A stretch of DNA of 64,000 bases from Candidatus Bathyarchaeota archaeon (GTDB taxonomy: Archaea > Thermoproteota > Bathyarchaeia > Bathyarchaeales > Bathycorpusculaceae). Location: NCBI GenBank assembly GCA_963832745.1, contig CAWHVC010000003.1, positions 224,001 to 288,000 of the forward strand, given 5' to 3'. Numbering within the stretch: the first letter of the stretch is position 1; the number at the start of each line of letters is the position of its first letter. The position numbers and the translations under genes were made by a program. The notes under the pieces are model-generated. The model saw only the letters and a list, made by a program, of their open reading frames with translations, searched no databases and was not told the DNA's origin. This document shows positions 2,853-33,674 of the stretch, piece by piece.

Positions 2853-5800
2853 TTACCATTGTTTCCAGGGGATTTCGTCCATGTACTCGTTGAGACTGCG
2901 GATTGATGCTCCGTTGTCTTTATGTTTAAGCACATCAACCAATGCAGCTGCAAGTTGTAGGTTGGTTATGACTGGCACGTTGAATTCTACTGCTTGGCGT
3001 CGGATGATGTAGCCGTCGGTTAAGATGTCTGAGTAGCTTGTTTGGCGGTTTGCGACTGGCACGTTTATGACTAAGTCGATTTTGCGTTCTTGTAGGTAGT
3101 CGAGGATGTTGGGGTTTGCTTGTGCGTCTTTAACTTTGTAGAGTATGGTTGTGTTCACGCCTGAAGCGTTCAGCACGTTGGCTGTGTGGGCTGTTGCGTA
3201 GATGCGGAAGTTCATTTCAGCAAACGCTTTTGCGATTGGGACGACACGTTTCTTGCGTTCCTCATCGCCACCGACGCTGATTAGAATAGCGCCGTCTTTT
3301 GGTGGAATGTTAACCTCGGCAGCTTGCAAGGCTTTACTGAATGCGTCTGAGAAGCTTTCGCCAATGCAGGCAACTTCGCCTGTGCTGAGCATTTCTACGC
3401 CCAAAACTGGGTCAGCGCCGCTAAGACGCATGAAACTAAATTGTGGAACCTTGACGCCTACATGTGGGGCAACAGTCATGGGTGAGAGTTGGATAGTGAT
3501 TTTTTTGCCCAACATTGCAAGAGTTGCTTGTTCAATCAGGTTTACGCCACGGGTTTTGCTGACAAACGGCATTGACCGTGAAGCGCGTAAGTTGCATTCG
3601 ATAACGTTGACGACGTCGTCTTTTACTAGGTATTGGATGTTAAAGGGGCCACGGATTCTAAGCGCCTTTACGATGCGTTGGGTGCAGTCTTCAATTTTCT
3701 TTTGAACCTCAATCTTAAGCGCTTGTGGTGGGATGGTCATTGTTGCGTCGCCGCTGTGGACGCCCGCGTTTTCTACGTGTTCCATTATTGCGCCGATTAG
3801 CACGTTTTCGCCGTCGCTGACGCCGTCAACTTCAACTTCTTTGGCGCGTGTTATGAATTTGCTGATGACAACTGGATGGTCATGGGAGACTTTAGCTGCG
3901 AGGTTTAGGAAGTTTTCAAGTGAGGCTTCGTTGTAGGCTACACGCATAGCGCTGCCAGAGAGCACATAGCTTGGGCGGACGATAACGGGGTAACCAATTT
4001 TTTCTGCGCTACGTTTGGCGTCTGCAATGGATACAAGTTTGCTCCAAGGCGGCTGACTAATACCAAGTTGGTCAAGTAACGCGCTGAATTTAGAGCGGTC
4101 TTCTGCTAAATCGACATCATGTGCAGATGTGCCAAGGATTTTGGCGCCTAACTCCGTCAGTTTCATGGACAGGTTGTTTGGGATTTGTCCACCGACGCTT
4201 GTGATTATGCCAAGCGGGTTTTCTTTGTCGTAAATGTCCATGATACGTTCAGTGGTTAATTCTTCAAAGTACAGTTTATCCGACACATCGTAGTCGGTGC
4301 TGACGGTTTCAGGGTTATAGTTAACCATGATGGCTTCTTTTATGCCGTTTTTCTTGAGCGCCCAAATCGTGTTAACGCCGCACCAGTCAAACTCGACGCT
4401 TGAACCGATACGGAAAACGCCTGCACCTAGAACAATGACTTTGCTTGGAGTATTGGAAAGTTCAATATCGTCTTCGTCTCCACCGTAAGTCATGTAAAGA
4501 TAGTTGGTTTTGGCTGGATACTCGGCGGCTAAAGTGTCGATCTGTTTAACTGAAGGAACAATTTTAGCGTTTTTACGGAAAGTGCGAATTGTTGTTTCGT
4601 CAGTGCATTGGCAAACTGCAATTTGCTCATCTGAGAAGCCTATGCGTTTAGCTTCACGTATAACCTCAACAGCTTCGGATTCGCCAAGATTTAGGTTGCG
4701 CAGTTTATCTTCCATGTTAAGTATGTTCTTGATTTTATACAGGAAGAAAGGATCGATTCCGCTTAGGCGATAAATTTCTGGTACACTTAATCCCATGCGA
4801 AGGGCTTTGCTGATTTTGTAGAGACGCTCATCTGTTGGATCCGCCAGTTCATCACGAATGCGTTCCTCTGATTCAGGCTCAGAATCTTCGGGGTTGCAGA
4901 CTAAACCGATTTTGCCGATGTCAAGCATTCGGACAGCTTTCTGCAGAGCCTCTTCAAAGCAGCGGCCAATAGCCATGACTTCGCCTACACTGCGCATTTG
5001 TGGTCCAACATGGCGGTCGGCGTTTTTGAATTTTTGAAGATCCCATCGAGGGATTTTAACCGTGATGTAGTCGAGGGCTGGTTCGAAGCAGGCGGTTGTT
5101 ACTTCTGTTACTTTGTTGATTAATTCAGGCAACAGGTAACCGATGGTTAACTTAGTAGCGATATAGGCAAGCGGGTAACCAGTGACTTTGCTGGCTAAAG
5201 CGCTGCTTCTTGACATTCTTGAGTTTACTTCGATGACTCGGCATTCTTCGGATTTAGTGTGAAGTGCCCATTGGATGTTGCATTCGCCAACTATGCCGAG
5301 GTGACGTATTGCGTTTATGCTGATTGAACGTATTTTGTGGTATTCACGATTCGTCATGGTCTGTGAGGGCGCAACAACGATGCTGTCGCCAGTGTGAACG
5401 CCCATGGGATCAAAGTTTTCCATGTTACACACGGTTAAACAGTTGTCAGCATAATCACGCATAACCTCATATTCAACTTCTTTCCAGTGACCAACATACT
5501 CTTCAATTAGGACTTGCCCGATGCGGCTCTGTGCGATTCCTCGGGTAACGATTTCTTTAAGTTCGGTCACATTATGGGCGACGCCACTGCCTTTGCCGCC
5601 TAAAGTGTAAGCTACACGAACAATCACAGGGTAACCGATTTCTTCAGCTGTTTCCATGGCAGATTTGAGACTAGTAGCTGATTTGCTTTTTAGGGGTGGA
5701 ACGTCGGCTTCAAGCATTGATTGACGGAAACGTTCCCTATCTCCTGTATCTTCAATGGCAGAAATTGGAGTACCTAGAACTTTACAGTTGTACTTGTCAA

Positions 5801-6122
5801 GAATACCTGTTTTGGCTAGTTCGATGCCGCAGTTTAACGCGGTTTGTCCACCGAACCCAAGCAGGATGCCGTCAGGACGTTCCTTAGCTATAACTTTTTC
5901 CACAAATTCGGGGGTAACTGGGAGAAGATAGACTTTGCCTGAAAGCCTTGGGTCAGTTTGGATTGTTGCAATGTTGGGGTTAATTAGAACGGTTTCTATA
6001 CCTTCCTCTCGCAGGGCTTTTAGGCATTGACTTCCACTGTAATCGAATTCGGCTGCTTCACCAATTTTGATTGCGCCGCTTCCAAGAACAAGAACTTTAT
6101 GTATCCAATCGAATTTCGGCAT
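2853..6122 (-). CDS. carB: Carbamoyl-phosphate synthase large subunit
   Basis: GSGAIKIGEAAEFDYSG, two ATP-grasp halves, C-terminal MGS domain, 1089 aa. Confidence 0.98.
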   Translation of the reverse strand: MPKFDWIHKVLVLGSGAIKIGEAAEFDYSGSQCLKALREEGIETVLINPNIATIQTDPRLSGKVYLLPVTPEFVEKVIAKERPDGILLGFGGQTALNCGIELAKTGILDKYNCKVLGTPISAIEDTGDRERFRQSMLEADVPPLKSKSATSLKSAMETAEEIGYPVIVRVAYTLGGKGSGVAHNVTELKEIVTRGIAQSRIGQVLIEEYVGHWKEVEYEVMRDYADNCLTVCNMENFDPMGVHTGDSIVVAPSQTMTNREYHKIRSISINAIRHLGIVGECNIQWALHTKSEECRVIEVNSRMSRSSALASKVTGYPLAYIATKLTIGYLLPELINKVTEVTTACFEPALDYITVKIPRWDLQKFKNADRHVGPQMRSVGEVMAIGRCFEEALQKAVRMLDIGKIGLVCNPEDSEPESEERIRDELADPTDERLYKISKALRMGLSVPEIYRLSGIDPFFLYKIKNILNMEDKLRNLNLGESEAVEVIREAKRIGFSDEQIAVCQCTDETTIRTFRKNAKIVPSVKQIDTLAAEYPAKTNYLYMTYGGDEDDIELSNTPSKVIVLGAGVFRIGSSVEFDWCGVNTIWALKKNGIKEAIMVNYNPETVSTDYDVSDKLYFEELTTERIMDIYDKENPLGIITSVGGQIPNNLSMKLTELGAKILGTSAHDVDLAEDRSKFSALLDQLGISQPPWSKLVSIADAKRSAEKIGYPVIVRPSYVLSGSAMRVAYNEASLENFLNLAAKVSHDHPVVISKFITRAKEVEVDGVSDGENVLIGAIMEHVENAGVHSGDATMTIPPQALKIEVQKKIEDCTQRIVKALRIRGPFNIQYLVKDDVVNVIECNLRASRSMPFVSKTRGVNLIEQATLAMLGKKITIQLSPMTVAPHVGVKVPQFSFMRLSGADPVLGVEMLSTGEVACIGESFSDAFSKALQAAEVNIPPKDGAILISVGGDEERKKRVVPIAKAFAEMNFRIYATAHTANVLNASGVNTTILYKVKDAQANPNILDYLQERKIDLVINVPVANRQTSYSDILTDGYIIRRQAVEFNVPVITNLQLAAALVDVLKHKDNGASIRSLNEYMDEIPWKQW

Positions 6123-7267
6123 TATTTTGCCTCCAAAGTTTTTTTGAATTTATCAAACAGCATTTCAGTATCGTAAGGTCCAGGTGAAGCTTCAGGATGC
6201 CATTGAACTGCAAAGACGGGTTTGGTTTTGTGTTTTATGCCTTCAGTGGTTTTATCGTTAGGGTTTACGAACCAGGGTTCAAGCGGCGTCTGCTTTAGAG
6301 TTTCCAAGTTTATAGCGTAACCGTGATTTTGAGTAGTAATATAACAACGTTTACTGGTCAAGTCAAGAGCAGGCTGGTTTTGAGCTCTGTGACCAAACTT
6401 AAGTTTGTAAGTATCTGCACCCATTGCTAAAGCCAAGATTTGAGCACCCAAACAGATACCCATCACTGGAACCTTTTCGACGAGTTCGCGAAGGGCTTCA
6501 ACGGTTTTTGTGTTACGTTTAGGGTCACCTGGCCCGTTGCTGACAAAGACACCGTCAGGGTGGTAAGATAAAATCTCTGCTGCTGAGGTGTCGTATGGTA
6601 CTCGGATAACGTTTATTCCTCGTCTTAACAGGTTACGGATAATGCTGAATTTAACTCCACAGTCAATTAAGACAACGGTTAGTTTGCCGTCAACATTGTA
6701 CTTGCAGGGTTTTTTAACAGAGACTTCCTTGACAAGGTCGGTCTGATTGGGGTCTGCAATATTGTGTCCATTTTTCAGGAGCGCTTCAAGGTTTGGTTCT
6801 TCGTTTGCGTCAAAAACTTGCATTATTCCAAGCATGACACCGTGGGTTCGCAGTTTTTTGGTTAATCGTCGTGTGTCTATGCCGTAGATTCCCGGGACGC
6901 CTTCGTCGGATAACCATTTGTCAAGGGTACGGGTGGATGCCCAATGGTATGGTTCGAGACAGAGCTCATGGATTACTAAGCCTTGAACTTGAATGTGGTC
7001 TGATTCAAAGTAAAGTGGCAAACCAAGGTTAAGCTCGTTTGATGGAACACCATAATTGCCCACCATTGGATAAGTAAGAGTTAAAATTTGTCCTTTATAC
7101 GAGGGGTCGGTTAAAGATTCAGGGTACCCAACCATTGAAGTTGAAAAAACCACTTCGCCACTTATTTTTCCGGTGGCACCAAAACCTTTCCCGATAAATG
7201 ACGTTCCGTCTTCAAGAAGCAGAACCGCTTTTTTAGTTTTATCCGACATGCTGTGTTGTGACTCCAA
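6122..7267 (-). CDS. carA: Carbamoyl-phosphate synthase small subunit
   Basis: LTDPSYKGQI, SNGPGDP, GICLG, QWHPE glutaminase motifs. Confidence 0.98.
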   Translation of the reverse strand: MESQHSMSDKTKKAVLLLEDGTSFIGKGFGATGKISGEVVFSTSMVGYPESLTDPSYKGQILTLTYPMVGNYGVPSNELNLGLPLYFESDHIQVQGLVIHELCLEPYHWASTRTLDKWLSDEGVPGIYGIDTRRLTKKLRTHGVMLGIMQVFDANEEPNLEALLKNGHNIADPNQTDLVKEVSVKKPCKYNVDGKLTVVLIDCGVKFSIIRNLLRRGINVIRVPYDTSAAEILSYHPDGVFVSNGPGDPKRNTKTVEALRELVEKVPVMGICLGAQILALAMGADTYKLKFGHRAQNQPALDLTSKRCYITTQNHGYAINLETLKQTPLEPWFVNPNDKTTEGIKHKTKPVFAVQWHPEASPGPYDTEMLFDKFKKTLEAK

Positions 7268-8813: not shown

Positions 8814-10034
8814 CTACTTGGTAGTCTTTGAGGCTTTCGGTTCCTTTGACGCTTTTAATGCATTGTACATCTTTGTTTGCATGCCCCAGAGTTCAATGAA
8901 GCCTTTTGAGTATGACTGGTTAAAGCTTGTTTTAATGTTATAGTTTGCCAAGTTCTTGTCGTAAAGTGAGTTTGGTGAACTACGTCCGACAACTTGCATG
9001 CTACCCTTGTAGAGCTTCAGTTTAACTTCGCCGTTCACGTTTTCTTGTGAACGGTTGATGAATGCGTCTAAATCATCTTTCAATGGGTCAACCCACAAGC
9101 CTGCATAAGCAAGGAAGACCCATTGGTCATCAATGGTTTGTTTGAAAAGGTTTTCGTGGCGTGTCATAACCATTTTTTCAAGGTCACGGTGAGCTTCCAA
9201 AATGACAATCGCTGCTGGGCACTCGTAAACTTCACGGGATTTTAAGCCGACGATACGGTCTTCTATGTGGTCAATTCGACCTACACCGTTTCGTCCAGCA
9301 ATCTTGTTTACTTCCTCTATAAGTTCAAGGGGCAGCATTGCTTTTCCGTTAACTGCTACTGGTTCACCTGATTGGAAAGTGATTGTTACGTATTCGGGTT
9401 TGTCTGGAGCCTTTTCTGGCGCAACTGTCCATTCATACGCGTCGGCGGGTGGCTCAACACTGGCGTCCTCAAGCAAACCGCATTCGATGGCGCGTCCCCA
9501 AACGCTGGCGTCAATACTGTATTTGGTTGCGTTAATTGAGATTGGAATGCCTTTGGCTTTGGCGTACGCCATTTCTTCTTCACGGGTCATGCCCCATTCA
9601 CGTACTGGAGCAAGAACTTTCATTTCTGGTGCTAAACTGCTTAATGTTATATCAAATCGGACTTGGTCGTTTCCTCGCCCTGTGCAGCCGTGGGCTAAGC
9701 CTGTTGCGCCTTCTTGTTTGGCGATTTCAACCATTTTTTTGGCGATTAATGGTCTTGATAGGCTTGTGCTAATTGGGTATTTGTCTTCATAAAGCGCGTT
9801 GGCTTTTATGGCGGGGAAAATATAGTCTTTGGCGAATTCGTCTTTGGCGTCGATTGAGAAGTGTTTTAGAACGCCAAGTTTATGGGCTTTTTCTTCTGCG
9901 CCAGGCAGGTCTTCGCCTTGGCCTACGTCAACTGTGACGGTGATTACTTGTGCGTCATATTTTTCTTGGAGGTATTTTATTAACACGGATGTGTCTAATC
10001 CGCCACTATATGCAAGTACAATTTTCTCGGTTAT
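8814..10034 (-). CDS. argG: Argininosuccinate synthase, probably starting at non-canonical ATA
   Basis: HGCTGRGNDQVRF motif. The essential KIVLAYSGGLDTS PP-loop lies upstream of the track's GTG (9986); the frame is open to an in-frame TAA at 10038-10040; ATA at 10034 sits 6 nt after GGGGAG. Confidence 0.95.
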   Translation of the reverse strand: MTEKIVLAYSGGLDTSVLIKYLQEKYDAQVITVTVDVGQGEDLPGAEEKAHKLGVLKHFSIDAKDEFAKDYIFPAIKANALYEDKYPISTSLSRPLIAKKMVEIAKQEGATGLAHGCTGRGNDQVRFDITLSSLAPEMKVLAPVREWGMTREEEMAYAKAKGIPISINATKYSIDASVWGRAIECGLLEDASVEPPADAYEWTVAPEKAPDKPEYVTITFQSGEPVAVNGKAMLPLELIEEVNKIAGRNGVGRIDHIEDRIVGLKSREVYECPAAIVILEAHRDLEKMVMTRHENLFKQTIDDQWVFLAYAGLWVDPLKDDLDAFINRSQENVNGEVKLKLYKGSMQVVGRSSPNSLYDKNLANYNIKTSFNQSYSKGFIELWGMQTKMYNALKASKEPKASKTTK

Positions 10035-10089
10035 TGTTTACTCCCCCGTTTTGTGAGCTAAATTATTTCCCTTACCTTGCAGGCTATAT

Positions 10090-10147
10090 TTTTAAACCTT
10101 GTGACTTTTTTGTTACATAAGAAGCTTTAAATGTACTATTTGATACA
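10090..10147. promoter_or_regulatory. Divergent argG/ACT-gene promoter with putative two-site operator (TGTGAC-N6-GTTACA, 14 nt, TGT-N10-ACA)
   Basis: 10090-10117 is 25/28 identical to 33061-33088 upstream of lysW; TATA-like elements on both strands. Confidence 0.7.
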
Positions 10148-10158
10148 TCGATATTTCT

Positions 10159-10737
10159 ATGACCATAGCTCAAAACGTCCGCTACTACCTACGAAACAAG
10201 CCCTACCTACTTGAAGCACTTGAAAAAAACATAGTTAACCTAAGCGAGCTATCCCGCCAAATCCAAAATGAACTAAACACAGATAACACAAGCGCCGTAA
10301 AAGCTGCCCTGCGACGATTCTCTGAAGAACTACAAAAGCACAAACAGAAAAGAGAAGAAAAAGTTCTTGCACTGCTTAAACGCAGCAGCATCGCAGTTTA
10401 CGACAGAAAATCTGTCATGATAACCTCGAAAGAAATGCAATCTAAAAATGGCATGAAAGTTGACTTGCCAGGAAAATACGTGTATCTCCTTGACAGGTCA
10501 GATTTGCCTGAACGCATAACCACACTTGTCAAGCATGAAAACTGCACAATGATTGTTATTCATTCGCCTGAAGAGTTAGAAGCAACTCCAGGTGTTGTCG
10601 CTTTCCTTGCAACCTTGCTGGCAGAACAGAACGTTAACATGATTGAGTTCATTTCATGCTGGACTGAAACAGTCATTGTCGTAGAAAAGAAGGATAGCCT
10701 AAAAACCTATGAAGTCCTCTCAAACATGGTAGGCTAA
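10159..10737 (+). CDS. ACT-domain protein with N-terminal helical (possibly DNA-binding) domain; candidate amino-acid-responsive regulator
   Basis: C-terminal TPGVVAFLATLLAEQNVNMIEFISCWTETVIVV is ACT-like; divergent from argG; TTTAAAT about 26 nt before ATG suggests a leaderless mRNA. Confidence 0.7.
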   Translation: MTIAQNVRYYLRNKPYLLEALEKNIVNLSELSRQIQNELNTDNTSAVKAALRRFSEELQKHKQKREEKVLALLKRSSIAVYDRKSVMITSKEMQSKNGMKVDLPGKYVYLLDRSDLPERITTLVKHENCTMIVIHSPEELEATPGVVAFLATLLAEQNVNMIEFISCWTETVIVVEKKDSLKTYEVLSNMVG

Positions 10738-21818: not shown

Positions 21819-24800
21819 TCATGGCTGCTGGGATTTCACGTAAACCTCAATATTCACTGCCGCCGTTGATTGTCCAATGAAATCCGACAGTTTTCCCGAC
21901 CAGCGAGGAGTTGAGTCTGCCGTGTACCCAACCGTCTGCGAGATTCCCCGCCATAGTAGTGCTTTATCATAGTCTTTAGCATCTTGAGGCATGAATTCAA
22001 AGATGCTACGACTGGCAACGATGACAAGTTTCTTCTTCATGCGGCTGATTGAAACGTTTATGCGGTTAAGGTTAAGGAGAAAATCGCTTTCACTGCGAAC
22101 GTAATCGGGGTCGCTAACAGTTGAGCTGATAATGATGAAGTCTGCTTCGCCGCCTTGATACCGTTCAACAGTATCTACACGGGTTTCACCGTAATCTTCT
22201 GCAAGCATATTCTTGAGCAGGCCTTTTTGGGCGTTATGCGGCGTAATCACACCTACAGCGTCGGGTGAAACACTGCGCACCAACGCGTTAACGATTGAAG
22301 CCTCAGTCAGATTTGACTGAAAACTTTCAGCCTCATCATGCACGATAAGCACAAACACGTTTTCCGGCTCCAAAACCACGCCTAAACCGTCAGTTGAAGG
22401 TTTAGAAGGCTCCAATGTTTCTTTCTGGTCACTGCGAAAATCGATTTTATCTTTTTCGTAAACCCACTCTTTAAGAAAATCAGCTATGACCGAGTGGCAC
22501 CTGTGACTTTCACAGAGCCGTTCTGCGGGGATGTCGGCTGGGTTTTTGCATTTTATCCGTTCAATTCCCAAATCCTCGTTACGAAGTAGGCGAAGGAAAT
22601 CCATTGCTGAGAGGAAACTGGCCATTTCTTCGAGTGTTCGGCGGTCTTCTTTTTCCCAGTTATGAGCGACGATAGGCGGGAGCTGACGGTGGTCACCTGC
22701 AACGAGGATTTGGCTATTTTTGGTCAGGAAGCTGCCGGAGAGGATGAGTTCGGGGAGTCGCATCATACTTGCTTCGTCCACGACTAGGAGGTCAAAGAAG
22801 CCTTCGCCCCAAGGTGGTTCGTTGCCGCCGATTTTCTTCATTAAACCGTACAGTCCTGGTGGGGTTAGGCATAGAATTAAGGGGTCAACAGCCGATGGAT
22901 TAGGCGTTAACGTGGATTGATTCATTAAAAGTCCAGTTAATTCTTCAACTGTACTTTTATCTTCATTATAGTTAACGTAGGTGACGCCTTCAATGGGCTT
23001 TACAGATGCAGTGTTGCTGCTGAGCACTCGGAAAATTCTCAGGTCTTTAAGGTCCTTGCCGCCCGCGTCAATATATTCCTGCCAGCACCGTGCAAGTTTA
23101 GCCACAAACTCTTGAATTGCCTTATGAGTTGGAGCAACCATTAACACGCGACATTTTGAAGCTGCACGGTGAGCAGCTACATGCGCCAAAACCGCCAACT
23201 GCAAAGTCTCAGTCTTCCCAGTACCCGGCGGACCTTGAAGCATAACGATGGGTTCTTTGCCAAACACGCGGTCAACAAAACGTGCCTGCTCCGCTTTAGG
23301 AGGCAAACGCCGTTTCTCCATCCAACCTAAAAAGTTGGAGGCAACTGTTTTTGGCAGGGCAGTATGTGTTGAGTTTGTTTTTTTGCCCGCAAGGTAATCT
23401 GCCAAGAGAAGGTAAAGCACGTTGTTGCCTGAATAATCAAGGCATTTTGCAGCCCTATCCGAAATGATGTCGTCGGCAAGCTCATCAAGGATATAGTAAC
23501 GTCCTTTTTCAAAAAGTTGCAGGTATTTGCCTTTGGCTTTTTCTGGGTCAGTCGTGGGCAGGTTATGCCAAGCACTGTATTTGCTGCCTTTGCCTCTTGG
23601 CCAACTGACAACTTTAATAGCAATTTCAGAACTCTGAACATCCACCTTGTCAACGATGGCGCGAGCGGATTTTTCTACTTCGGAAGGTGAACGTTTTTGG
23701 GCTTCCTCAAATTGGCCTGAAACATTTTTTGATAGTTCTGTTACTACCATCCAGTCGCCAGAACTGGAGCCGTCTGAACCTTTAACTCGGCAAGCGTTAG
23801 CGACACATTCAGCCTTAGGTAACCCGATACCTTCATAGATAAGCTTTCCTTTCACCACAAATTCCTGTTCGAACTCAAAAACGCTTGTACACTGGAAAAT
23901 TAGTGACCTGCCAGAAGCTACCCGCTGATAAGGCAACAACGCATAATGCTGGTACATTTCTTGCCGTTTAGAGAAATACTCCAAATCAAGGAATTCTCGG
24001 CAACTACGTTCAAGAGTAGAAAGCCCCAATGAGAATTCAGCAATTTTTGGAACACCAATCGGCTTCTTACCAAGGCGTCGGTTGCGAATGTTTAGTGACC
24101 GCTCAATATGCTCCAGCGCCAAGCAGATTTTTTGTCCCATCAAATTAAGTTCTTCATCAGTTATGCGGCGAGTCTTTTTTGTGTAATCACACCATTTTCG
24201 TTTCTCCAGTAGAACTTTGGCTTTGCCCTTTTCTTGATAGGTGTCCAATCTGCCTTTGACGCCCCAAATATATTCGATAGGCAATTGGTCGCCGAATCGG
24301 GCGCGTGCCGGGTAATAACCATCTTTATGATACAACTCGTCTCTTAGAAAAACTATGGAACCGTCAGGGTTCCTGTTGAAAGGTAAAGAGTAATTGAATA
24401 AACCGTCACGGAAAACCAAACTCAAATCCACAGATGTTCCGTCTTTACATTTGGCTGTCCAGTTTTTGCGGTCAAAATAGGCAGCTTGCTCAAGAATGGG
24501 TAACAATCCACAACTGTGAAATTTAAGCGCCTTTCGATGCTGCACCTCATCTTGCAAAATAGAGAACATTGGTTGGTCAATAGCCTGCCGCAAACCAAGA
24601 AGATCGCGGACTGCTCTGGCGCTAATAAGTGAGGGCTGACGGCAAACGGCTTTCATTAGAATGTCACGTTCTTGGCGACTGAAAAAATACAGGTGAATAG
24701 GAGCCTCATCTGGGCTGCCTACTTCGTTTGCGACCTTCTGGATTGCTGCACTTAGATCAGTGAAGAAGGCTTCAAGGAGAGTTTTTTCTTCGTCTAGGCA

Positions 24801-26168
24801 AGCTTGATGGTCGTCGGGTAGCATTCGGATAACTTGAGATATGCTTGGGACCTCGCCTCTGTAACGTGTACAGTTAACGCGTGCACTGATAAGGGAGACA
24901 ATGTCAAGCATGTAGTCCCATTCAACAAAAAGGTAAATGCGTATCATGCCATCAGGGCTAAACATTAACGACGTGTCGGCGCCAGTGGAAGGGTTGTCCT
25001 CGGGCAGGCTCCCGTATCCTGTGCCAGTTAACCATGGCATCCAACGGCTTTTGCTTGCACAGGGACTACCAGGGCGGATTCCACTTATCATGTATTGTGA
25101 ACGTTCAATAAGCCAGTCCAGTTTAGGACCAACAATTGGGTCAGTTGAGAGTTCATGAACTTTTTGAGGGTCATTTGCTGGAAGATTTTTGAAATCGTAG
25201 GGGCGCAGGCTGTAGGTATCAAAAACGGGTTTGAGCTTTGCCAAATCCTCGAGCCTGTAGATTCCATGGTGCCCAAGCGCTTTCTGTTCGCCACGGCTTA
25301 GATTTAGCAAGGCGATGCTTTCTTTTTCGACGGCGCAAATTATGCAGCATTCATTAAAGCCGCAGTTGTCACATCTCCAGCATAGTTGAAACTCTACCTG
25401 TTCCAGCGGTGTCTGATGAATACGGTTTAACTCACCATTACCGGCGAGCAGTCGTTCAACATCTTGAATTAATGGGCTTAGTTTGAATTTGGGCAGTTTT
25501 TCGGGGTCAAGACTTTCAAGGCTGGTTTCACGGTTGATTACGCCGCCTTCAATCTCAACATTAGAAATCAAACTGCCAAGCTCTCTTGACAAAAGCAGAA
25601 CATAAATTGCTACTTGAATACGGTGAGCGGTCTGCTCTTTCCATGAGGCTTTTAGTTCAAAAATTCGTACCTTGACTTTGCCGTTTCTTAGTGGCCAAAT
25701 CGCGATTAAATCAGTGATGCCTTTTACATCCCACACGCCAATTGGACCCTTCATGGGCGCTTGGTAAAGCAGCACAGGACGGTTATCGGTTTTTTCGCCT
25801 GCAGAAATTTGGGCTTCAATAATTTGCTTTAACTCGTTTAGGGAGTCAACTGCTTTTTCCCAACCATGCGTGTGAGGGTCATATTTGGTGAAATCATGAT
25901 AGTCAGCGGCTTTTGTTTTTAGTTCGGCGACTTTTTTCTCTTCGAGGGATTTGCCGGCGCCGTAAAGCAAGGGGCTAATAGGTTTGAAGGCTTCGGGCCA
26001 ACTACGTTTTTTGACTTCTTTGCCTTCAAATTTTAGTTTAAAGAAGCGTGGGCAACAGTTGAACCGAATGTATTCTGCTATGCCTGAAGCGGTTAGAGAA
26101 TCGCTGTTTTGCTCTTCTTCCTCGTCGTCAGTAAAAGTGTAGTCCATGTTTATGTCGCCATCGCTCAA
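21819..26168 (-). CDS. PD-(D/E)xK (RecB/Cas4-like) nuclease fused to a Dna2/UPF1-type SF1B helicase
   Basis: GITDL...FELKAS...HRIQVAIY with Cys cluster (CCPR; CWRCDNCGFNECC); QGPPGTGKT, VVDEASMM, AGDHRQLPP, VITPHNAQ, DTVERYQGGE, NRINVSISR. Confidence 0.85.
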   Translation of the reverse strand: MSDGDINMDYTFTDDEEEEQNSDSLTASGIAEYIRFNCCPRFFKLKFEGKEVKKRSWPEAFKPISPLLYGAGKSLEEKKVAELKTKAADYHDFTKYDPHTHGWEKAVDSLNELKQIIEAQISAGEKTDNRPVLLYQAPMKGPIGVWDVKGITDLIAIWPLRNGKVKVRIFELKASWKEQTAHRIQVAIYVLLLSRELGSLISNVEIEGGVINRETSLESLDPEKLPKFKLSPLIQDVERLLAGNGELNRIHQTPLEQVEFQLCWRCDNCGFNECCIICAVEKESIALLNLSRGEQKALGHHGIYRLEDLAKLKPVFDTYSLRPYDFKNLPANDPQKVHELSTDPIVGPKLDWLIERSQYMISGIRPGSPCASKSRWMPWLTGTGYGSLPEDNPSTGADTSLMFSPDGMIRIYLFVEWDYMLDIVSLISARVNCTRYRGEVPSISQVIRMLPDDHQACLDEEKTLLEAFFTDLSAAIQKVANEVGSPDEAPIHLYFFSRQERDILMKAVCRQPSLISARAVRDLLGLRQAIDQPMFSILQDEVQHRKALKFHSCGLLPILEQAAYFDRKNWTAKCKDGTSVDLSLVFRDGLFNYSLPFNRNPDGSIVFLRDELYHKDGYYPARARFGDQLPIEYIWGVKGRLDTYQEKGKAKVLLEKRKWCDYTKKTRRITDEELNLMGQKICLALEHIERSLNIRNRRLGKKPIGVPKIAEFSLGLSTLERSCREFLDLEYFSKRQEMYQHYALLPYQRVASGRSLIFQCTSVFEFEQEFVVKGKLIYEGIGLPKAECVANACRVKGSDGSSSGDWMVVTELSKNVSGQFEEAQKRSPSEVEKSARAIVDKVDVQSSEIAIKVVSWPRGKGSKYSAWHNLPTTDPEKAKGKYLQLFEKGRYYILDELADDIISDRAAKCLDYSGNNVLYLLLADYLAGKKTNSTHTALPKTVASNFLGWMEKRRLPPKAEQARFVDRVFGKEPIVMLQGPPGTGKTETLQLAVLAHVAAHRAASKCRVLMVAPTHKAIQEFVAKLARCWQEYIDAGGKDLKDLRIFRVLSSNTASVKPIEGVTYVNYNEDKSTVEELTGLLMNQSTLTPNPSAVDPLILCLTPPGLYGLMKKIGGNEPPWGEGFFDLLVVDEASMMRLPELILSGSFLTKNSQILVAGDHRQLPPIVAHNWEKEDRRTLEEMASFLSAMDFLRLLRNEDLGIERIKCKNPADIPAERLCESHRCHSVIADFLKEWVYEKDKIDFRSDQKETLEPSKPSTDGLGVVLEPENVFVLIVHDEAESFQSNLTEASIVNALVRSVSPDAVGVITPHNAQKGLLKNMLAEDYGETRVDTVERYQGGEADFIIISSTVSDPDYVRSESDFLLNLNRINVSISRMKKKLVIVASRSIFEFMPQDAKDYDKALLWRGISQTVGYTADSTPRWSGKLSDFIGQSTAAVNIEVYVKSQQP

Positions 26169-27320: not shown

Positions 27321-28457
27321 TTAGTTTTTGTTTGCAGTTTGGCTGTTGTTTTTGTTGTGAAGCTCTGCCAGTTTAAGAATGGTTTCTTTGTAGACGGCTA
27401 TAGCGTTTAAGTATTCTTGGATTTCAATGTGTTCGTCAACTGTGTGGTCAAGATGTGAATCTCCAGGGCCATAAGTTACTATTGGCAAATTCATGGCTTT
27501 TCCCAGAAGGTTCATGTCCCCAGTGCCTGTTTTCCGTAGCAACGTTGCAGGTCTGTTTAGCACTTTGCGGACTGATGAAGAAATAACGTGAACAAGCGGT
27601 GAAGACTTATTTGCTTCAAACGGCTCCACAGTATCTTGCACGGATGCTTTAATGTTGACTTCTGGGTTTGCATTTTGATAGTTTCCAATTATCTTCATCA
27701 TTTTATCGTAAACTTGTGCGGTTGTAAATTGTATGGGTACACGGACGTCAAGCATCATTTCAGCTTCAAAAGGAATAACAGAGTTTCCTTCCCCACCAAC
27801 CATTTTCACAAGACACACGGTTATTGAAGTGAAGGGTGTTTCTTGGGGGTCTATCGAAGGGAAAGCACAAGCTGACTTAATTTTTTCCCATAACTCATAC
27901 GCTTTTTCGAGCGCGTTATCATAAAGCCAAGGTGTTGAAGCGTGACCAGTTTCAGTTTTAACTACAATTTTTAGCTGAATCTGCCCTTTGTAACCAACAG
28001 TAATATTTTCGACTCCGCTGGGTTCACCAAAAACGGCGTAATCAGCTTCTATACCCTGAGTGATAAGGTGACGAACGCCTTTGCTTGTTGCTTCCTCTTC
28101 CACAACGCTTGCAATAAGGATTTTGCCTTTAAAATTGGGGTCTTTTGAAGCTGCGACCGCTGCCATGACCATTGCGGCTAAGGGTCCTTTTGCGTCGACT
28201 GCGCCTCGAGCGTAAATTTTGCCTTCTTCAATGCGGAGCGGCATGTGTCCTGCAACGGTGTCCATGTGACCACAAAGCAGGATAACTGGTTCGCCGTCAC
28301 CGACTACACCGATTACGTTGCCTATTGTGTCTATGCCGACTTCAAAGCCCATATTTTTCATTTCGAGGGCTAAAAAGTTGGCTATGTCTTGTTCTTTGCC
28401 GCTGGGGCTGTAAATGCCAAGTAGGTTAGTTAGAAACCGTACTGCTTGCTCGTTCAT
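27321..28457 (-). CDS. lysK: LysW-lysine/ornithine hydrolase (M20 family)
   Basis: GHMDTV, GRGAVDAKG, VEEE, YGPGDSHLDHT. Confidence 0.93.
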   Translation of the reverse strand: MNEQAVRFLTNLLGIYSPSGKEQDIANFLALEMKNMGFEVGIDTIGNVIGVVGDGEPVILLCGHMDTVAGHMPLRIEEGKIYARGAVDAKGPLAAMVMAAVAASKDPNFKGKILIASVVEEEATSKGVRHLITQGIEADYAVFGEPSGVENITVGYKGQIQLKIVVKTETGHASTPWLYDNALEKAYELWEKIKSACAFPSIDPQETPFTSITVCLVKMVGGEGNSVIPFEAEMMLDVRVPIQFTTAQVYDKMMKIIGNYQNANPEVNIKASVQDTVEPFEANKSSPLVHVISSSVRKVLNRPATLLRKTGTGDMNLLGKAMNLPIVTYGPGDSHLDHTVDEHIEIQEYLNAIAVYKETILKLAELHNKNNSQTANKN

Positions 28458-29637
28458 TTTCTTCTTCTCCTAACGCTTCATCTAATGTTTTTACTGCTTT
28501 GTCGATTTGTTCTTTGGTAATTATCAAGGGAGGCAAGATGCGGATTACGGTTCTGCCAGCGTCTATAACAAGAACACCTTTGCTTATTGTTTTCATAATT
28601 ACGCCATAAACGTCATAGCGTAATTCAATGCCAAGCATTAAGCCTAAACCGCGCACTTCTTTGACGATTTTGTGTTTGGCAGCAACTGCTTCAAGTTGTT
28701 CTTTGAAGTATTTTCCGTTAACTGCAGCTTTACCAGCTAAGTCTTCTTCCAGCAAGGCGTCGATTGCGGCGCATCCTGCTGCACAAACAAGTGGGCTGCC
28801 GCTGAAAGTTGTTGAGTGTTCACCGATTTTAAGGGTGGACATGAGGTCTTCTCTTGCAACGGTTATGCCGATTGGTAAGCCACCTGCGAACGGTTTGGCG
28901 AGGCACATGATGTCTGGTGTTACATCCCAGTTTTGGCATCCAAAGAGTTTGCCTGTACGTCCAAAACTTGACTGAACCTCATCAAGAATAAGAAGAACAC
29001 CTTTTTCAGTGCAGATTTCCCGTACCTGTTGCAGGTAACCGTCTGGTGGAACGCGGATTCCGCCTTCTCCACGGATGGGTTCGATTATGACTGCGGCGGT
29101 TTTGTCGGTTATTGCTTCCCGTATCTTGTCCGGATTGTCGGGTGCAACATGTTTTATGTCGGGTATTAGTGGCATGAAGGGTTCGCGGTATTTTTTGTCC
29201 CATGTAAGGGATAAAGCACCCATTGTTTTGCCATGATAAGCACCCATTACGCCGATAATTTCTGTTTTACCGGTTGCTTTCCGTGCAAGTTTTATTGCAC
29301 ATTCTACCGATTCAGCGCCGCTGTTTGAAAGAAACGCTTTATCCAAGCCTTTGGGGGTAATACTGACTAGTTTTTGGATGAATTCAGCGCGTTTATCATT
29401 GTAGTAGCAACTATGCAGTGTAATGAGTTGTTCTACTTGGGTTTTTACAGCTTCAACAATTTTTGGGTGACAATGCCCAAGTGCAGCTACGCCGTAACTG
29501 CTTGCGCAGTCAAGATATTCTTTACCGTTAATATCCCACAGCAGTGCGCCTTTACCGCGTGTGAATACAAGTGGCTTTTTAGAGAAAACGTTAGCCAAAT
29601 AACGTGTTTCAATATCCATTATTTCTTTTTCATTCAC
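28426..29637 (-). CDS. lysJ: LysW-semialdehyde aminotransferase (LysJ/ArgD)
   Basis: Class III PLP motifs SNSGAESVECAIK and DEVQS..GRTGK; lies in the lysW cluster. Confidence 0.93.
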   Translation of the reverse strand: MNEKEIMDIETRYLANVFSKKPLVFTRGKGALLWDINGKEYLDCASSYGVAALGHCHPKIVEAVKTQVEQLITLHSCYYNDKRAEFIQKLVSITPKGLDKAFLSNSGAESVECAIKLARKATGKTEIIGVMGAYHGKTMGALSLTWDKKYREPFMPLIPDIKHVAPDNPDKIREAITDKTAAVIIEPIRGEGGIRVPPDGYLQQVREICTEKGVLLILDEVQSSFGRTGKLFGCQNWDVTPDIMCLAKPFAGGLPIGITVAREDLMSTLKIGEHSTTFSGSPLVCAAGCAAIDALLEEDLAGKAAVNGKYFKEQLEAVAAKHKIVKEVRGLGLMLGIELRYDVYGVIMKTISKGVLVIDAGRTVIRILPPLIITKEQIDKAVKTLDEALGEEENERASSTVSN

Positions 29638-30439
29638 TAGTTATCACTGTACCAACTTGATGATTAAGAACTGAAGTTATAGGCTGCTTAGCAGTTCCTG
29701 AAGTTACAAGAACCTCTTTGACGCCTTGATTGAGCGCTTCCAAACCTGCATGAACTTTGGTGCTCATGCCACCGCCGATTTTAGATAGAACCTCTTTGAC
29801 TTCGGTTGCAGCGATTTTTGGCACACGCTCGCCTTTAAGAATTAAACCTTCAACATCAGTTAATAGAATAAGTTTATCTGCTTTTAAGGCACCTGCGACT
29901 ATTGCGGCTGTTCTGTCGCCATCCACGTTTAGGGGTTCACAGTCTTGACTTAACGCAATCGGAGTCACGATTGGCACGTAGCCTTTTTCAAGCAGCAGAT
30001 TAAGCAACTCAGTGTTTACTTGAGTAATTTTGCCTGTATAGCCACCATCGATAACTTTTTTCCGTCCACGCTCATCAACAACGATTAAGCGCGTTTTACG
30101 TTCAGCTTTCAAGATTCCAGCATCTAATCCGCTTAAGCCTACAGCGGGCAATCCTTGGGCTTCAAGAGCCAACACGATTTGTTTGTTAAGTTTGCCCGCC
30201 ATGACCATGGTGTAGATTTCGATGGTTTCTTTGTCGGTGTAGCGACTGCGGAAACCTTCAGGTGACATGATGAATTTTTGTTCTTTGCCAAGTTTAGCGG
30301 CGATTTCGGTAACTTCCACTCCGCCTCCATGGACGAGAACGACTTTATGTTCTTTGGCGACTTCTTTTAGGTCGGATACTAGGTCGCTGGATGCACCTTC
30401 TTTCAGGATGCTTCCACCCATTTTAATAACAAGCAGCAT
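29630..30439 (-). CDS. lysZ: LysW-aminoadipate/glutamate kinase (LysZ/ArgB)
   Basis: VIKMGGS, VHGGG, GFRSRYTD, LNVDGDR, GGGMSTK. Confidence 0.93.
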   Translation of the reverse strand: MLLVIKMGGSILKEGASSDLVSDLKEVAKEHKVVLVHGGGVEVTEIAAKLGKEQKFIMSPEGFRSRYTDKETIEIYTMVMAGKLNKQIVLALEAQGLPAVGLSGLDAGILKAERKTRLIVVDERGRKKVIDGGYTGKITQVNTELLNLLLEKGYVPIVTPIALSQDCEPLNVDGDRTAAIVAGALKADKLILLTDVEGLILKGERVPKIAATEVKEVLSKIGGGMSTKVHAGLEALNQGVKEVLVTSGTAKQPITSVLNHQVGTVITSE

Positions 30440-30445
30440 GGTAAA

Positions 30446-31500
30446 TCACATCGGGTGGAACCCAGTGCTCTTAAGGCCTGTGGTTTCGTCTATTCCCATG
30501 AGCAAATTGAGGCATTGTACACCTTGTCCTGAAGCGCCCTTGCACATGTTATCAATGGCTGAGAACATCATTAAACGGTTTGTGTGCTCATCAATCTCGA
30601 AAGCCGACGTCACAGAAGTTTGTACCTAAGGTGATTTTGGGGTCTGGAAGCTGGTAGGGTCCCTTCTGGTATTTGACTAAGCGCACAAACGGCTCGTTTC
30701 CATACATGCCGCGTAGCGCTTTCCAAAGGTCCTTGCTGGCTATGGGTTGTTTAGGATAAGCGTGAATGGTTGCTAAGATGCCGCGTACCATGTTTACGGC
30801 GTGTGGCGTAAAACCGATTTTTACGGGTTGAGTACTCAACGCAGATAGTTCTTGTTCTACTTCGGCTGTGTGACGGTGCCCAGCAACTTGGTATGGACGT
30901 ACACCACCGAAACGTTCAGGGTGATGTGAAGCGAGGGTTGGTTTACTTCCGCCTCCAGAACTGCCGACTTTGAGGTCAACCACGATTTTGTCGGGGTCAA
31001 CAAGGCCTGCTTTAACGATTGGTGCTAAACCTAAGATGGCGCTTGTTGCCATGCAACCGGGGCAAGCGACGAGTTTAGCATTTTTGATTTCTTCTCTGAT
31101 GAAGCTCGGGCAGTCCGTATACTGCGTCTTTAAGCATGTCGGGGTGAGCATGTTTCCAGCCGTAGTAGGTTTCGTAGTCGACTGGGTTTTTGAGGCGAAA
31201 ATCGGCGCTCATGTCAATGACTTTTAAGCCTACCTCAAGCAGTTTAGGAACCAAGTTTACTGAGCCTCCATGTGGAGTGGCTGTGAATATTAAGTCACAG
31301 TTTTTTTGAAGTTCAGCCATGTCTTGGGGTACAAATTTAAGTTGAGTTAAACCTCGAAGGTTTGGGTGAACGTTGAAAATGTATTCGCCGGCGCTTTGAC
31401 GTGAAGTAACCATTGTTACCTCTGCCTGCGGATGTAAAAGTAGCAACCGCAAGAGTTCCCCGCCAACGTATCCTGAACCACCAATTATTCCGATTCTCAT
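30446..31500 (-). pseudogene. lysY: LysW-phosphate reductase (LysY/ArgC) interrupted by two +1 frameshifts (pseudogene, assembly error or recoding)
   Basis: Three consecutive frames give GGSGYVGGELLR...YGLPELH / REEIKNAKLVACPGC...FCDVGF / EIDEHTNRLMMFSAIDNMCKGASGQ. Extra bases at about 31098 and 30599; removing them gives an intact 350-aa protein. Confidence 0.9.
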
Positions 31501-31534
31501 TCTTGTTTGCTCTCCCTAAAGGTTGATTTGGTTT

Positions 31535-32716
31535 TTAGTTGATTAGGCTTTGTGCAGCCTTTAATAGTGGAATAGCCACGTTTAGGCCTGTTACGAGTCG
31601 GGTGTTTTCCCAGAACTCGGGGCAAGAATTTGCCTCATGAAACACGAGGGCATTCTTGTTATTTTCTATACTTTCATCAATTACATTTTTAACTTTCTGG
31701 TATGGATCTGAGCTTGCATAGGCACTGAAAGTTTGTTCCAACTTTCCGTTCCATGTTGGAAAATCAGTTAGACGTGTCTCGTCCGCTTTAACCTTCTGTA
31801 CGGGCAGGTAAGCGTTTGCTGCTAAGTCAAGCTGAGTTTTTAGGTAATCTTCTGTTACATTGTTTTTTTCTGTAACATTTACCATGGCGTCAAGCGCAAA
31901 AATCCAAGCGTCACTACCCTTGCCAAGGGTGTCGCCGGATTTGACTGCTAAATCAATCACACTTTGGGGCAGTTTGGCTTCAAACACTAGGTTACCAAGG
32001 AAAGTGTTAGTTCGAAAATCCTTAAAGCCCGCCCGGGCAAGCGCCTTGTTATAGCAGACGGCTTGGTTGCCTTTCTCTTTGTAAACTATTATGCGTAAGT
32101 CGTAGAACCATTTGTTTACTAGTTCTTGGGCGACTACACCGATTGGGTTAATGATGTTTGGTTTTGTTTCTTGAATGTTAGCGATGAGTTCTTCACGGGT
32201 TTTTGAGAGCATAATCATTTTGCCGTGGGTTCCAGCATCTGCCTTAATCACGATACCATCTTCAAAGGGAATTTCCGCTTGGAAAAGGTCGGCGATGTCT
32301 TTTTCGTTGTGTATTTCTTTGCCATTCTTCATGAAGTCAGAAGCGTCACAGGGCACAAACACGGTTTTTGGAATTGGCAACCCTGCTTTCCAAAGGTTTA
32401 GCAGTGTACGGAGTTTGCTGTAGCAGGTAAATTCCGCTTGGCTGGTGTTAATGGTTTTTTTGCCAAGCATCTCCATAATGTATGAAGCCTGCAGTCGACG
32501 GTTTTTGCTTTGGGCCCGGTTAAGTACAGCAGCGGTTTGGTTGAAAGTTTCAATATAGTCTTTGCCTTTGGTTTTGGCGCTGAAACCCTCCTTTGAAATT
32601 GCCAAAGCAATTTTGCGGAATGGAATAAATTTTAGGTCAATTCCAAGTTGTTGCGCTGTCTGTTTTATGCCAGCTTCATCATTTTCTGAGCGTTCATAAA
32701 GAAGGGCTATGCTCAT
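31535..32716 (-). CDS. lysX: Divergent LysX/ArgX-like ATP-grasp ligase
   Basis: Between lysW and lysY; IPKT, QELV, DLR, FRTN, HEANSCPEF motifs; 393 aa, longer than usual. Confidence 0.75.
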   Translation of the reverse strand: MSIALLYERSENDEAGIKQTAQQLGIDLKFIPFRKIALAISKEGFSAKTKGKDYIETFNQTAAVLNRAQSKNRRLQASYIMEMLGKKTINTSQAEFTCYSKLRTLLNLWKAGLPIPKTVFVPCDASDFMKNGKEIHNEKDIADLFQAEIPFEDGIVIKADAGTHGKMIMLSKTREELIANIQETKPNIINPIGVVAQELVNKWFYDLRIIVYKEKGNQAVCYNKALARAGFKDFRTNTFLGNLVFEAKLPQSVIDLAVKSGDTLGKGSDAWIFALDAMVNVTEKNNVTEDYLKTQLDLAANAYLPVQKVKADETRLTDFPTWNGKLEQTFSAYASSDPYQKVKNVIDESIENNKNALVFHEANSCPEFWENTRLVTGLNVAIPLLKAAQSLIN

Positions 32717-32792
32717 CGCTAATCGTCCTTTAAAGCAAATATTTCAAAAATAATGGTAACATTCTAAAATAGTAGGATGATTGATTGACTGC

Positions 32793-33020
32793 TTATTCGC
32801 CCCAGTCTTCGCCTTCGATGGTTAACTCTTGTAGGTCGACGCATCCACCTTTAACGGTTTTTACTTCGAGTTCAAGTCCACATCCAGGGCAACTGACGAT
32901 TTCGCCGGTTTCTGTGTCTGCTGGCACGTCTAGTTCTGCGTCACAGTCTGGGCATTTTGCTTTGCAGATGTCTGCTTCGTGGGTGTTTGGATTTGTGGGT
33001 TTTATCATTGTTTTACTCAC
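32793..33020 (-). CDS. lysW: Amino-group carrier protein LysW
   Basis: CPDC...CPGC zinc ribbon and C-terminal EDWGE. Confidence 0.96.
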   Translation of the reverse strand: MSKTMIKPTNPNTHEADICKAKCPDCDAELDVPADTETGEIVSCPGCGLELEVKTVKGGCVDLQELTIEGEDWGE

Positions 33021-33060: not shown

Positions 33061-33118
33061 TTTTAAACATTGTGACTTATATGTTACAGGTTGGAAAAGA
33101 AATGTTCCAAATATAACA
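33061..33118. promoter_or_regulatory. lysW-operon promoter with the same two-site operator as argG
   Basis: ttttaaacat-TGTGAC-ttatat-GTTACA, 14 nt, TGTTccaaatatAACA. Confidence 0.7.
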
Positions 33119-33263
33119 AAAAGCCGTGAAAGGTTAAGCATGCAAGCTCAGGTTTTTGCGGTAAATAATAGCAGTTAAAAAACGATAAACGTACTTCTCA
33201 AGACGCATTAGTGCCGAAATCGTTAAATTCAAACAACCGCATCCTTACCACAGGCGCAAAGTA

Positions 33264-33674
33264 ATGGATGAAACAGACCGGAAAATTTTAAAGATCCTCA
33301 AAAACGACGCAAGAGCAGGCTACGTCGAAATCGGTAACCAAGTCGGCCTATCCGAAGGCGCAGTCCGAAAAAGAATCAAAAACCTAACCGACGATGACGT
33401 CATCCGCAAATTCACCGTTAAAATCGGCGTCAAAGAAGGCGCAGAAGCTATAACCCTGCTCACTGTAAACCCAGCCTACCCCACACAAGAAGTTACAAAA
33501 CGCATACAACTTATCCCAAATGTTGAAACAATCTATGAAGTTACAGGCGAATACGACATTGTCGCAGTCATCGGCGGCATGAACGTTGTCGAAGTTAACG
33601 AATGCATCGAAAAAATCCGCCGTGTAGAAGGCATAATGAAAACCAACACAATGATAGTTCTACGCAACCTCTAA
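33264..33674 (+). CDS. lysM: Lrp/AsnC-family regulator (LysM-like)
   Basis: MDETDRKILKIL...SEGAVRKRIK, EVTGEYDI; divergent from lysW. Confidence 0.85.
   Translation: MDETDRKILKILKNDARAGYVEIGNQVGLSEGAVRKRIKNLTDDDVIRKFTVKIGVKEGAEAITLLTVNPAYPTQEVTKRIQLIPNVETIYEVTGEYDIVAVIGGMNVVEVNECIEKIRRVEGIMKTNTMIVLRNL

Follow-up and report, generated by a model that had tools for sequence, protein, structure and literature searches.

Which protein recognizes a sequence shared by two amino-acid biosynthesis promoters, and what it controls through it, is the question raised by this locus. The window, by which we mean the whole stretch of 64,000 nucleotides analysed here (positions 224,001 to 288,000 of contig CAWHVC010000003.1 of a Candidatus Bathyarchaeota archaeon), carries an argG-argH-carA-carB cluster and a lysW cluster, and the promoters of both contain the same pair of inverted repeats, termed here box 1 and box 2. 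Divergent from argG is the gene for a 192-aa protein with an N-terminal domain of unknown function, DUF7523, and a C-terminal ACT-type domain (the DUF7523-ACT protein), while lysM, a member of the Lrp/AsnC family, is divergent from lysW. Source labels of near-identical proteins assign the organism to Bathyarchaeia. The initial annotation of the window proposed an arginine regulon run either by the ACT protein or by LysM. Comparative evidence supports a small predicted arginine regulon comprising argG-argH-carA-carB, the lysW operon and the ACT gene. The shared operator is conserved and the ACT protein is favoured over LysM as its binder.

The shared two-box element

The initial annotation had described a match of 25/28 between positions 10090-10117 and 33061-33088, with TGTGAC-N6-GTTACA directly upstream of a minus-strand TATA box in each, followed exactly 14 nt further on by a second palindrome of the form TGT-N10-ACA. 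All of these observations could be reproduced: the two stretches match in register, the first palindrome (box 1) lies at 10100-10117 and 33071-33088, and the second (box 2) lies at 10132-10147 and 33103-33118. The shared module is about 58 bp long and consists of the TATA box, 2 bp, an 18 bp dyad (box 1), 14 bp and a 16 bp dyad (box 2). The two boxes are 31 bp apart from centre to centre, corresponding to about three helical turns. In both copies box 1 begins 2 bp from a TTTTAAAC element, which is located about 55 nt from the start codon of the minus-strand operon. The element at 10089..10097 is presumably a TATA box, as judged from the archaeal promoter consensus. The features of the two promoter regions are as follows.

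10089..10097, minus strand: argG TATA box, GTTTAAAAA on this strand, kept in 22 loci of the genus and in other genera
10100..10117, no strand assigned: box 1, argG copy, TGTGAC-TTTTTT-GTTACA
10126..10132, plus strand: putative TATA box of the DUF7523-ACT gene, TTTAAAT
10132..10147, no strand assigned: box 2, argG/ACT copy, TGTACTATTTGATACA, between the TATA box and the ATG of the ACT gene
10159..10737, plus strand: DUF7523-ACT protein, 192 aa, candidate regulator, ATG at 10159
33061..33068, minus strand: putative lysW TATA box, GTTTAAAA on this strand
33071..33088, no strand assigned: box 1, lysW copy, TGTGAC-TTATAT-GTTACA
33103..33118, no strand assigned: box 2, lysW copy, TGTTCCAAATATAACA, drifted; TGTTCCATTTGGTGCA in most relatives

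The motif as initially given holds for both copies, but the terminal A of GTTACA is not kept at argG in relatives. The consensus of the family is TT-RYGAC-(T-rich N6)-GTNAC-A for box 1 and TGTNC-N6-GNACA for box 2, the latter being a perfect inverted repeat, TGTTC-N6-GAACA, in some genomes. Box 2 is present at lysW as claimed, but its sequence in this genome and its nearest kin has drifted; the usual form of the relatives, TGTTCCATTTGGTGCA, is close to the form found at the ACT promoter, TGTCCCATTTGATACA.

A genome-wide motif scan, as suggested by the initial annotation, found the motif restricted to the argG and lysW promoters and not common at unrelated promoters. The exact 12-base pattern TGTGAC-N6-GTTACA occurs twice on both strands of the whole genome (3,021,879 bp, five contigs), at these two sites, and the combined two-box module is also present at these two places only. 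Allowing one mismatch to the 12-base pattern adds 10 places in the genome, none with the common flanks. Within the window, a search with up to one mismatch gave 2 matches against a mean of 0.28 in 100 shuffles, two or more being reached in 6 of the 100, and this count by itself is only suggestive. Matrix scores were 32.0 and 30.2 bits at the two sites and 16.7 bits at the next match, which is within an open reading frame (ORF); the matrix was built on 40 distinct modules of the genus including both sites of this genome, which makes the top two scores circular. Secondary matrix matches (up to 16.7 bits for box 1 and up to 17.5 bits for box 2) fall in ORFs or at unrelated places and were dropped. 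The contribution of chance is negligible because the flanks are shared, the spacing is identical, the position beside the TATA box is the same and the sequence is conserved in other genomes. Dyad symmetry, conservation above the flanks in orthologous promoters and rarity elsewhere in the genome, taken as the operational marks of an operator, were all found, and the shared sequence is by this prediction a real, conserved two-site operator.

Conservation of the element and its linkage to the DUF7523-ACT gene

The family of this genome (f1) was sampled with 61 genomes, one per genus; related genomes are not independent observations, and the counts given here overstate independence. Phylogenetic footprinting, also suggested initially, resolved the boxes as discrete conserved islands at the argG and lysW promoters. 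When the argG/ACT intergenic regions of 22 genomes from the genus were aligned, both boxes and the TATA box proved conserved at fixed spacing within variable surroundings. The module is likewise present in 24 of the 26 aligned lysW/lysM loci of the genus, L039 and L041 being without it; 4 of the 30 loci (L046, L050, L055 and L059) were left out, their start-finding having failed. The information profile falls to about zero immediately beyond box 2, with values that are underestimates since the argG set includes 4 reverse-strand copies and 1 spurious match. Beyond the genus, the module was found at lysW in five of five other genera of the family and at argG in ten loci from five other genera. 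The spacers of box 1 are specific to the locus, TTTTTT at argG and TTATTT at lysW, and therefore the two copies evolve independently while their half-sites are kept.

Across the family, the strict pattern of TATA box plus box 1 was found in 18 of the 61 genomes, usually twice (once with the argG-type and once with the lysW-type spacer), and a reversed control pattern in none of the 61. An orthologue of the DUF7523-ACT protein (E <= 1e-68) is encoded in 19 of the 61 genomes, and all 19 carry the module; the strict pattern identifies it in 17, and inspection revealed a TTTAAG variant in the other 2. One family genome without the protein has a single strict-pattern match with an atypical spacer. 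No recurrent third target of the module was found in the 61 genomes. In five f1 genomes that are 90-100% complete (G064, G119, G126, G211 and G180), there was no match for ArgG, the LysX-like ligase or the DUF7523-ACT protein; these organisms may be arginine auxotrophs in which the pathway and its candidate regulator were lost together.

In a wider sample of 201 Bathyarchaeia genomes, full-length members of the DUF7523-ACT family were found in 119 and argG in 154. The best family member lies divergent to argG, at a distance of at most 400 bp, in 71 of 102 genomes belonging to 10 families, and an insertion lies between the two genes in 2 more; the underlying table lists 102 best family-member places and 93 argG places, with no argG listed or found in 9 genomes. 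This pairing also extends to subfamilies which are only about 30% identical. The intergenic regions of these distant subfamilies hold a different inverted repeat, TTGGTCA...TGACCAA, which has the same YGAC core as box 1. At five such loci (L025-L029, from f5, f7, f11 and f12), the members are about 225 aa long, about 30% identical and divergent to argG, and the TTGGTCA/TGACCAA repeats are about 24 nt apart beside a TTTATA box in short intergenic regions. Conversely, a box-1-like site was absent from all 20 argG upstream regions (230 nt) taken from genomes of 11 other families that are without the DUF7523-ACT protein.

Box 2 had been proposed to be an autoregulatory site, and in f1 it was confirmed to lie downstream of the ACT gene's TATA box and ahead of its ATG. 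Family f24 has a more compact intergenic region, in which TGCGAC-N6-GTTACA comes after a single TATA element and directly before the ATG of the regulator; box 1 itself therefore holds the autoregulatory position there. Each of the 5 f24 genomes searched has this site once and no other like it. G186 and G014, both of the genus, have about 1.7 kb inserted between argG and the DUF7523-ACT gene. The argG side has kept box 1 and box 2 in exact register and has lost the TATA box of the regulator, while the regulator side retains its TATA box and box 2. It follows that box 2 is an independent regulatory site, a copy of which stays with the ACT gene.

Two simpler explanations of this arrangement were considered and rejected. 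That box 2 is a mere core promoter or initiator element of the ACT gene is ruled out by its retention at argG in G186 and G014 after loss of the ACT TATA box, and by its presence at lysW, where it has no such gene to serve. A tie of the ACT gene to thrB, thrC and hom, which lie downstream of it in this genome, was dropped since the downstream neighbour varies among genomes (thrB, thrC, lysK or an aIF1-like gene) while argG is constant. As a separate observation, two genomes of genus g1 (G006 and G162, 96-97% complete) still have the ACT gene and the box 2 of its promoter, and no argG was found in them. The regulator may have outlived its main target there, or argG may lie in unassembled sequence.

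Candidate proteins for the two boxes

The 192-aa protein matches Pfam DUF7523 (PF24367) with 39.5 bits (cut-off 27) over residues 2-72, corresponding to model positions 1-68 of 158, and Pfam ACT_7 (PF13840) with 34.5 bits (cut-off 27) over residues 126-188. N-terminal domains taken from other genomes match DUF7523 in 14 of 14 cases. The AlphaFold2 model, built on an alignment of 50 sequences, has a predicted local distance difference test (pLDDT) value of 96.5 and shows helices at residues 3-12, 15-22, 28-39 and 44-73, followed by a beta-rich part and a canonical ACT unit; folded alone, the N-terminal domain again forms four helices (pLDDT 90.2). By sequence profile, the C-terminal ~120 residues match 3l76 (5e-9), 1zvp (3e-5) and CASTOR1 (~0.13), and by Foldseek the C-terminal part matches 3tvi, 1zvp and 3ab2 at E ~1e-5 (TMq 0.44-0.50, probability 1.00). 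The match to CASTOR1, which the initial annotation had named for comparison, is thus not significant; the closest structures are aspartokinase regulatory domains and VC0802/Atu0741.

Modelling as a homodimer gave a score of 0.51 against 0.03 for the best control, with at least 94% of contacts shared among three runs and a partner pLDDT of 81. Of proteins solved as pairs of one chain, 20 of 30 reach the mark used, compared with 1 of 23 among those solved as single chains, and the pass may reflect likeness to solved ACT dimers rather than independent evidence. The predicted interface is symmetric and involves residues 98-172 of the ACT part, leaving the N-terminal domains free. The latter are basic, with 15 Lys/Arg against 9 Asp/Glu in 75 residues, and across 50 diverse homologues there is little or no variation at N27, S29, R33, A50 and R53. 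Their consensus EAL-x2-G-[IV]-x-N-x-S-x-L-[SA]-R looks like a helix-turn-helix. The net positive charge, the invariant residues and this consensus suggest that DUF7523 may bind DNA. The family forms 252 clusters at 50% identity (E <= 1e-10), which automatic Atlas labels also place in Thermoplasmatota, Microcaldota and Nitrososphaerota. When the N-terminal part was searched against the Atlas, all matches belonged to its own family and scored no higher than 0.87.

On this evidence the DUF7523-ACT protein appears the most probable binder of both boxes, with a somewhat better than even chance. It is favoured over LysM because of its pairing with argG in 10 families and the autoregulatory placement of a box in both promoter layouts, and further because box 2 stays with the split ACT gene and box 1 is missing from the argG promoters of the 20 protein-less genomes. 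In the proposed mechanism, the protein encoded divergently from argG would bind both boxes as a two-fold dimer formed via the C-terminal ACT-type domain, with the positively charged four-helix domain at the N-terminus reading the half-sites. A pathway amino acid, most likely arginine, would bind at the ACT domains and set the affinity for DNA. Box 1, when occupied, would overlap the position of the B recognition element (BRE) of the argG-argH-carA-carB and lysW operons, and box 2, which follows the TATA box of the regulator's gene and precedes its start, would when occupied limit the regulator's own synthesis. Repression by the DNA-bound form is suggested by the positions of the two boxes, and an arginine-loaded repressor seems slightly preferable to an apo-activator. 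Arginine as the ligand is no more than a plausible guess.

Several observations weigh against this assignment. Both by sequence and by fold, the ACT domain comes nearest to the ACT domains of aspartokinase, whose ligands are threonine or lysine. The distance between the outer triplets is not the same in the two boxes, differing by 2 bp, and the boxes may therefore be bound by two different proteins. For the N-terminal domain, Foldseek returned no match at E <= 0.001 (the best being a Rex-family repressor at E 3.1), comparison with PDB profiles gave nothing under E 0.4, and Pfam gave only sub-threshold hints besides its own family. The DUF7523-ACT gene and argG are on different contigs in 19 of the 102 genomes, mostly in genus g48 of f24. 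By a hand tally, argG occurs without the protein in 52 of the 201 genomes, and a family member occurs without argG in 17, of which 12 belong to one family that has only the most distant members. No f1 genome was seen with argG and without the protein; co-occurrence within f1 therefore cannot separate the ACT protein from another arginine-linked factor. A site had also been expected at argF, and none is present upstream of argF in this genome.

A distinctly less probable, though still credible, explanation is that one or more unlinked factors, possibly one per box, bind the module, the ACT protein being a co-regulated sensor that does not bind DNA, such as a regulatory subunit of ArgG. DUF7523 has neither homology nor fold evidence for DNA binding, the two boxes are spaced differently, and ACT proteins are often regulatory subunits of enzymes according to passages of the GapMind preprint (10.1101/2024.10.14.618325). 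The divergent arrangement around a shared control region in 10 families, however, is typical of a regulator paired with its target and not of enzyme subunits, and in both promoter layouts the boxes occupy the autoregulatory position. Moreover, the type of repeat changes along with the protein subfamily, binding by a global factor would predict sites at more than two promoters, and the charge of the N-terminal domain also speaks for DNA binding by the ACT protein.

Binding of the module by LysM, which would then co-regulate lysW and argG with the ACT protein merely co-regulated or unrelated, is improbable. The lysM gene adjoins the lysW copy, and Sulfolobus LysM, as described in parts of PMC3597687, has many amino-acid targets and binds just upstream of the lysW BRE/TATA, its site being 11 bp upstream of the BRE. 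Table 1 of the same paper gives the Sulfolobus motifs as 15 bp dyads with a CG-N5-CG core, which we summarize as GTWCG-N5-CGWAC. This core is absent from box 1 and box 2, and is kept separately at the lysM promoter in the following element.

33180..33194, no strand assigned: ACG-N5-CGT element, candidate LysM box, AAACGATAAACGTAC, outside the shared module

The AAACGATAAACGTAC element precedes the lysM TATA box (33222-33229) by about 30 bp, is conserved in the alignment of the genus and looks like a Sulfolobus-type autoregulatory box of LysM. A conserved AAA(A/T)CGTTAAATT TATA region is seen upstream of lysM at 33220-33229. The presence of this separate Sulfolobus-like box is a further reason to favour the ACT protein over LysM. 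In addition, f24 has box 1 at argG/ACT in 5 of 5 genomes where no LysX-like gene was found, 2 of these 5 genomes are without an Lrp homologue more than 34% identical to this LysM, and in G186 and G014 box 2 travels with the ACT gene and not with lysM. LysM is thus unlikely to bind the shared module and probably binds the element upstream of its own gene.

It is hardly conceivable that the similarity is a relic of promoter duplication or a product of chance with no regulatory role: the 12-base pattern alone did reach two matches in 6 of the 100 window shuffles, but the half-sites are kept while spacers and flanks diverge independently at both loci across many genera, and both boxes were retained after the argG/ACT pair had split.

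Related systems and the genes around the two sites

If the DUF7523-ACT protein is the binder, the kind of system is a familiar one, namely a ligand-sensing one-component regulator with dyad operators and autoregulation. Bacterial ArgR/AhrC senses the end product, binds paired palindromic ARG boxes at arginine promoters and regulates its own gene. The logic proposed here is alike, while the protein family and fold are unrelated: the ACT protein has no match to ArgR/AhrC domains (Pfam E <= 0.1, NCBIfam E <= 0.01), its boxes lie in an archaeal TATA/BRE context, and they are 31 bp apart from centre to centre in contrast to the adjacent 18 bp boxes of ArgR. NikR and TyrR-type regulators also combine a DNA-binding module with an ACT-fold sensor that mediates oligomerisation. 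Their domain logic resembles that proposed here, whereas their DNA-binding domains are of the ribbon-helix-helix and AAA+/helix-turn-helix types, to which no homology was detected. The ACT parts of aspartokinase, VC0802/Atu0741 (ACT_7) and CASTOR1 resemble the C-terminal part, through which the dimer is predicted to form, but these proteins are without the DUF7523 domain and serve as enzyme or signalling modules that are not linked to DNA.

Like LysM and other Lrp-type regulators of Sulfolobus (feast/famine regulatory proteins), the ACT protein would be a small one-component amino-acid sensor with an N-terminal part that binds DNA and a C-terminal alpha/beta ligand domain. Both systems have dyad operators by the lysW BRE/TATA, and parts of PMC3597687 report a second, weaker site nearby in Sulfolobus. 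The ACT protein is nevertheless unrelated to LysM in sequence, with no Pfam match to the AsnC/Lrp families in a search in which the LysM of this genome matches both. The operators also differ, TGYGAC-N6-GTNACA here as against the 15 bp GTWCG-N5-CGWAC type, and box 1 abuts the TATA box instead of lying 11 bp upstream of the BRE as given in PMC3597687. The regulon is, furthermore, centred on argG here.

A literature search covering few subscription journals found nothing on DUF7523, only phylogenomic surveys for COG2150, and no description of a dedicated archaeal regulator of arginine biosynthesis. Within the literature searched, therefore, the protein family, its candidate DNA-binding domain and an arginine-specific archaeal regulator are not described. 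There is an even chance, in our estimate, that DUF7523 is a previously unrecognised DNA-binding domain and that the family is the functional archaeal counterpart of ArgR, consisting of widespread, autoregulated amino-acid-sensing factors that are encoded divergently to argG and co-evolve with operators of YGAC core. In one family, the LysW ornithine operon would then have come under the control of the DUF7523-ACT protein as well. If this is true, an uncharacterised domain would gain a function and a role in DNA binding, Bathyarchaeia promoters would have a first operator consensus, and the LysW cluster would gain support as the ornithine branch of arginine synthesis. With a soluble protein of 192 aa, defined half-sites and few candidate ligands, the locus is a complete and cheap test case for an uncultured lineage.

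The genes around the two sites are listed below.

2853-6122, minus strand: carB, TIGR01369, 1487.9 bits, over cut-off
6122-7267, minus strand: carA, TIGR01368, 470.3 bits, over cut-off
7288-8769/8796, minus strand: argH, TIGR00838, 475.3 bits, over cut-off
8814..10034, minus strand: argG (argininosuccinate synthase), NF001770, 578.5 bits, apparent ATA start at 10034-10032
27321..33009, minus strand: lysW operon (lysW, lysX-like, lysY, lysZ, lysJ, lysK)
27321-28457, minus strand: lysK
28426-29637, minus strand: lysJ
29630-30439, minus strand: lysZ
30446-31500, minus strand: lysY/argC, in three ORF pieces
31535-32716, minus strand: lysX-like
32793-33009, minus strand: lysW, for which the ORF list gives a GTG start at 33020
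33264..33674, plus strand: lysM (Lrp/AsnC family), divergent from lysW

The initial annotation had also suggested that the LysW pathway of this organism makes ornithine, and the gene content supports this view. A diaminopimelate decarboxylase gene, lysA, scores 482.8 bits (cut-off 297.9), whereas no homocitrate synthase scored over the cut-off, the best match in the family reaching 354.4 bits against 413.55. The model that LysZ fits best is that of the dual [LysW]-aminoadipate/[LysW]-glutamate kinase. These features, together with the operator held in common with argG, make ornithine (ArgW-type) rather than lysine the probable product of the LysW cluster. As a third target of the module, argF was considered and rejected: the only ornithine-carbamoyltransferase-like locus besides the presumed pyrB (C5:541449-542353) is broken over three frames, with internal stops and no box upstream. 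The lysY/argC gene is itself broken into three ORFs of 141, 186 and 55 aa, and either both of these split genes are decaying or the five-contig assembly contains indel errors.

The LysX-like ligase is unusually long (393 aa) and matches the LysX model (281 positions) at residues 3-267 only, with 87 bits against a cut-off of 275.6, so that about 125 C-terminal residues lie outside the match. Between genera of the family its identity is 63-66%, and no such ligase was found in genomes of f24/f33. The product of lysM scores 165.6 bits against NF040947 (cut-off 180) and matches the HTH_AsnC-type and AsnC_trans_reg models of Pfam.

Since the gaps between its genes are tiny, argG-argH-carA-carB is presumed to be one operon. 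No ATG, GTG or TTG is present upstream of the essential SGGLDTS motif of argG. The codon at the conserved start position, 7-9 nt past a GGGGGAG Shine-Dalgarno sequence (10032-10048, minus strand), is ATA here and ATA, ATT, ATC, ACG, GTG or ATG in relatives (L002-L024 and L067-L085). This suggests that argG initiates at near-cognate codons, possibly as a second, translational control point. The ATG of the DUF7523-ACT gene is about 30 nt from the centre of its own TATA box, and its mRNA is probably nearly leaderless. Elsewhere in the window, a 1449-aa ORF (21819-26168, minus strand) contains a cysteine cluster and a Walker-type GPPGTGKT motif, both recognized by eye, which suggest a large helicase- or nuclease-like protein.

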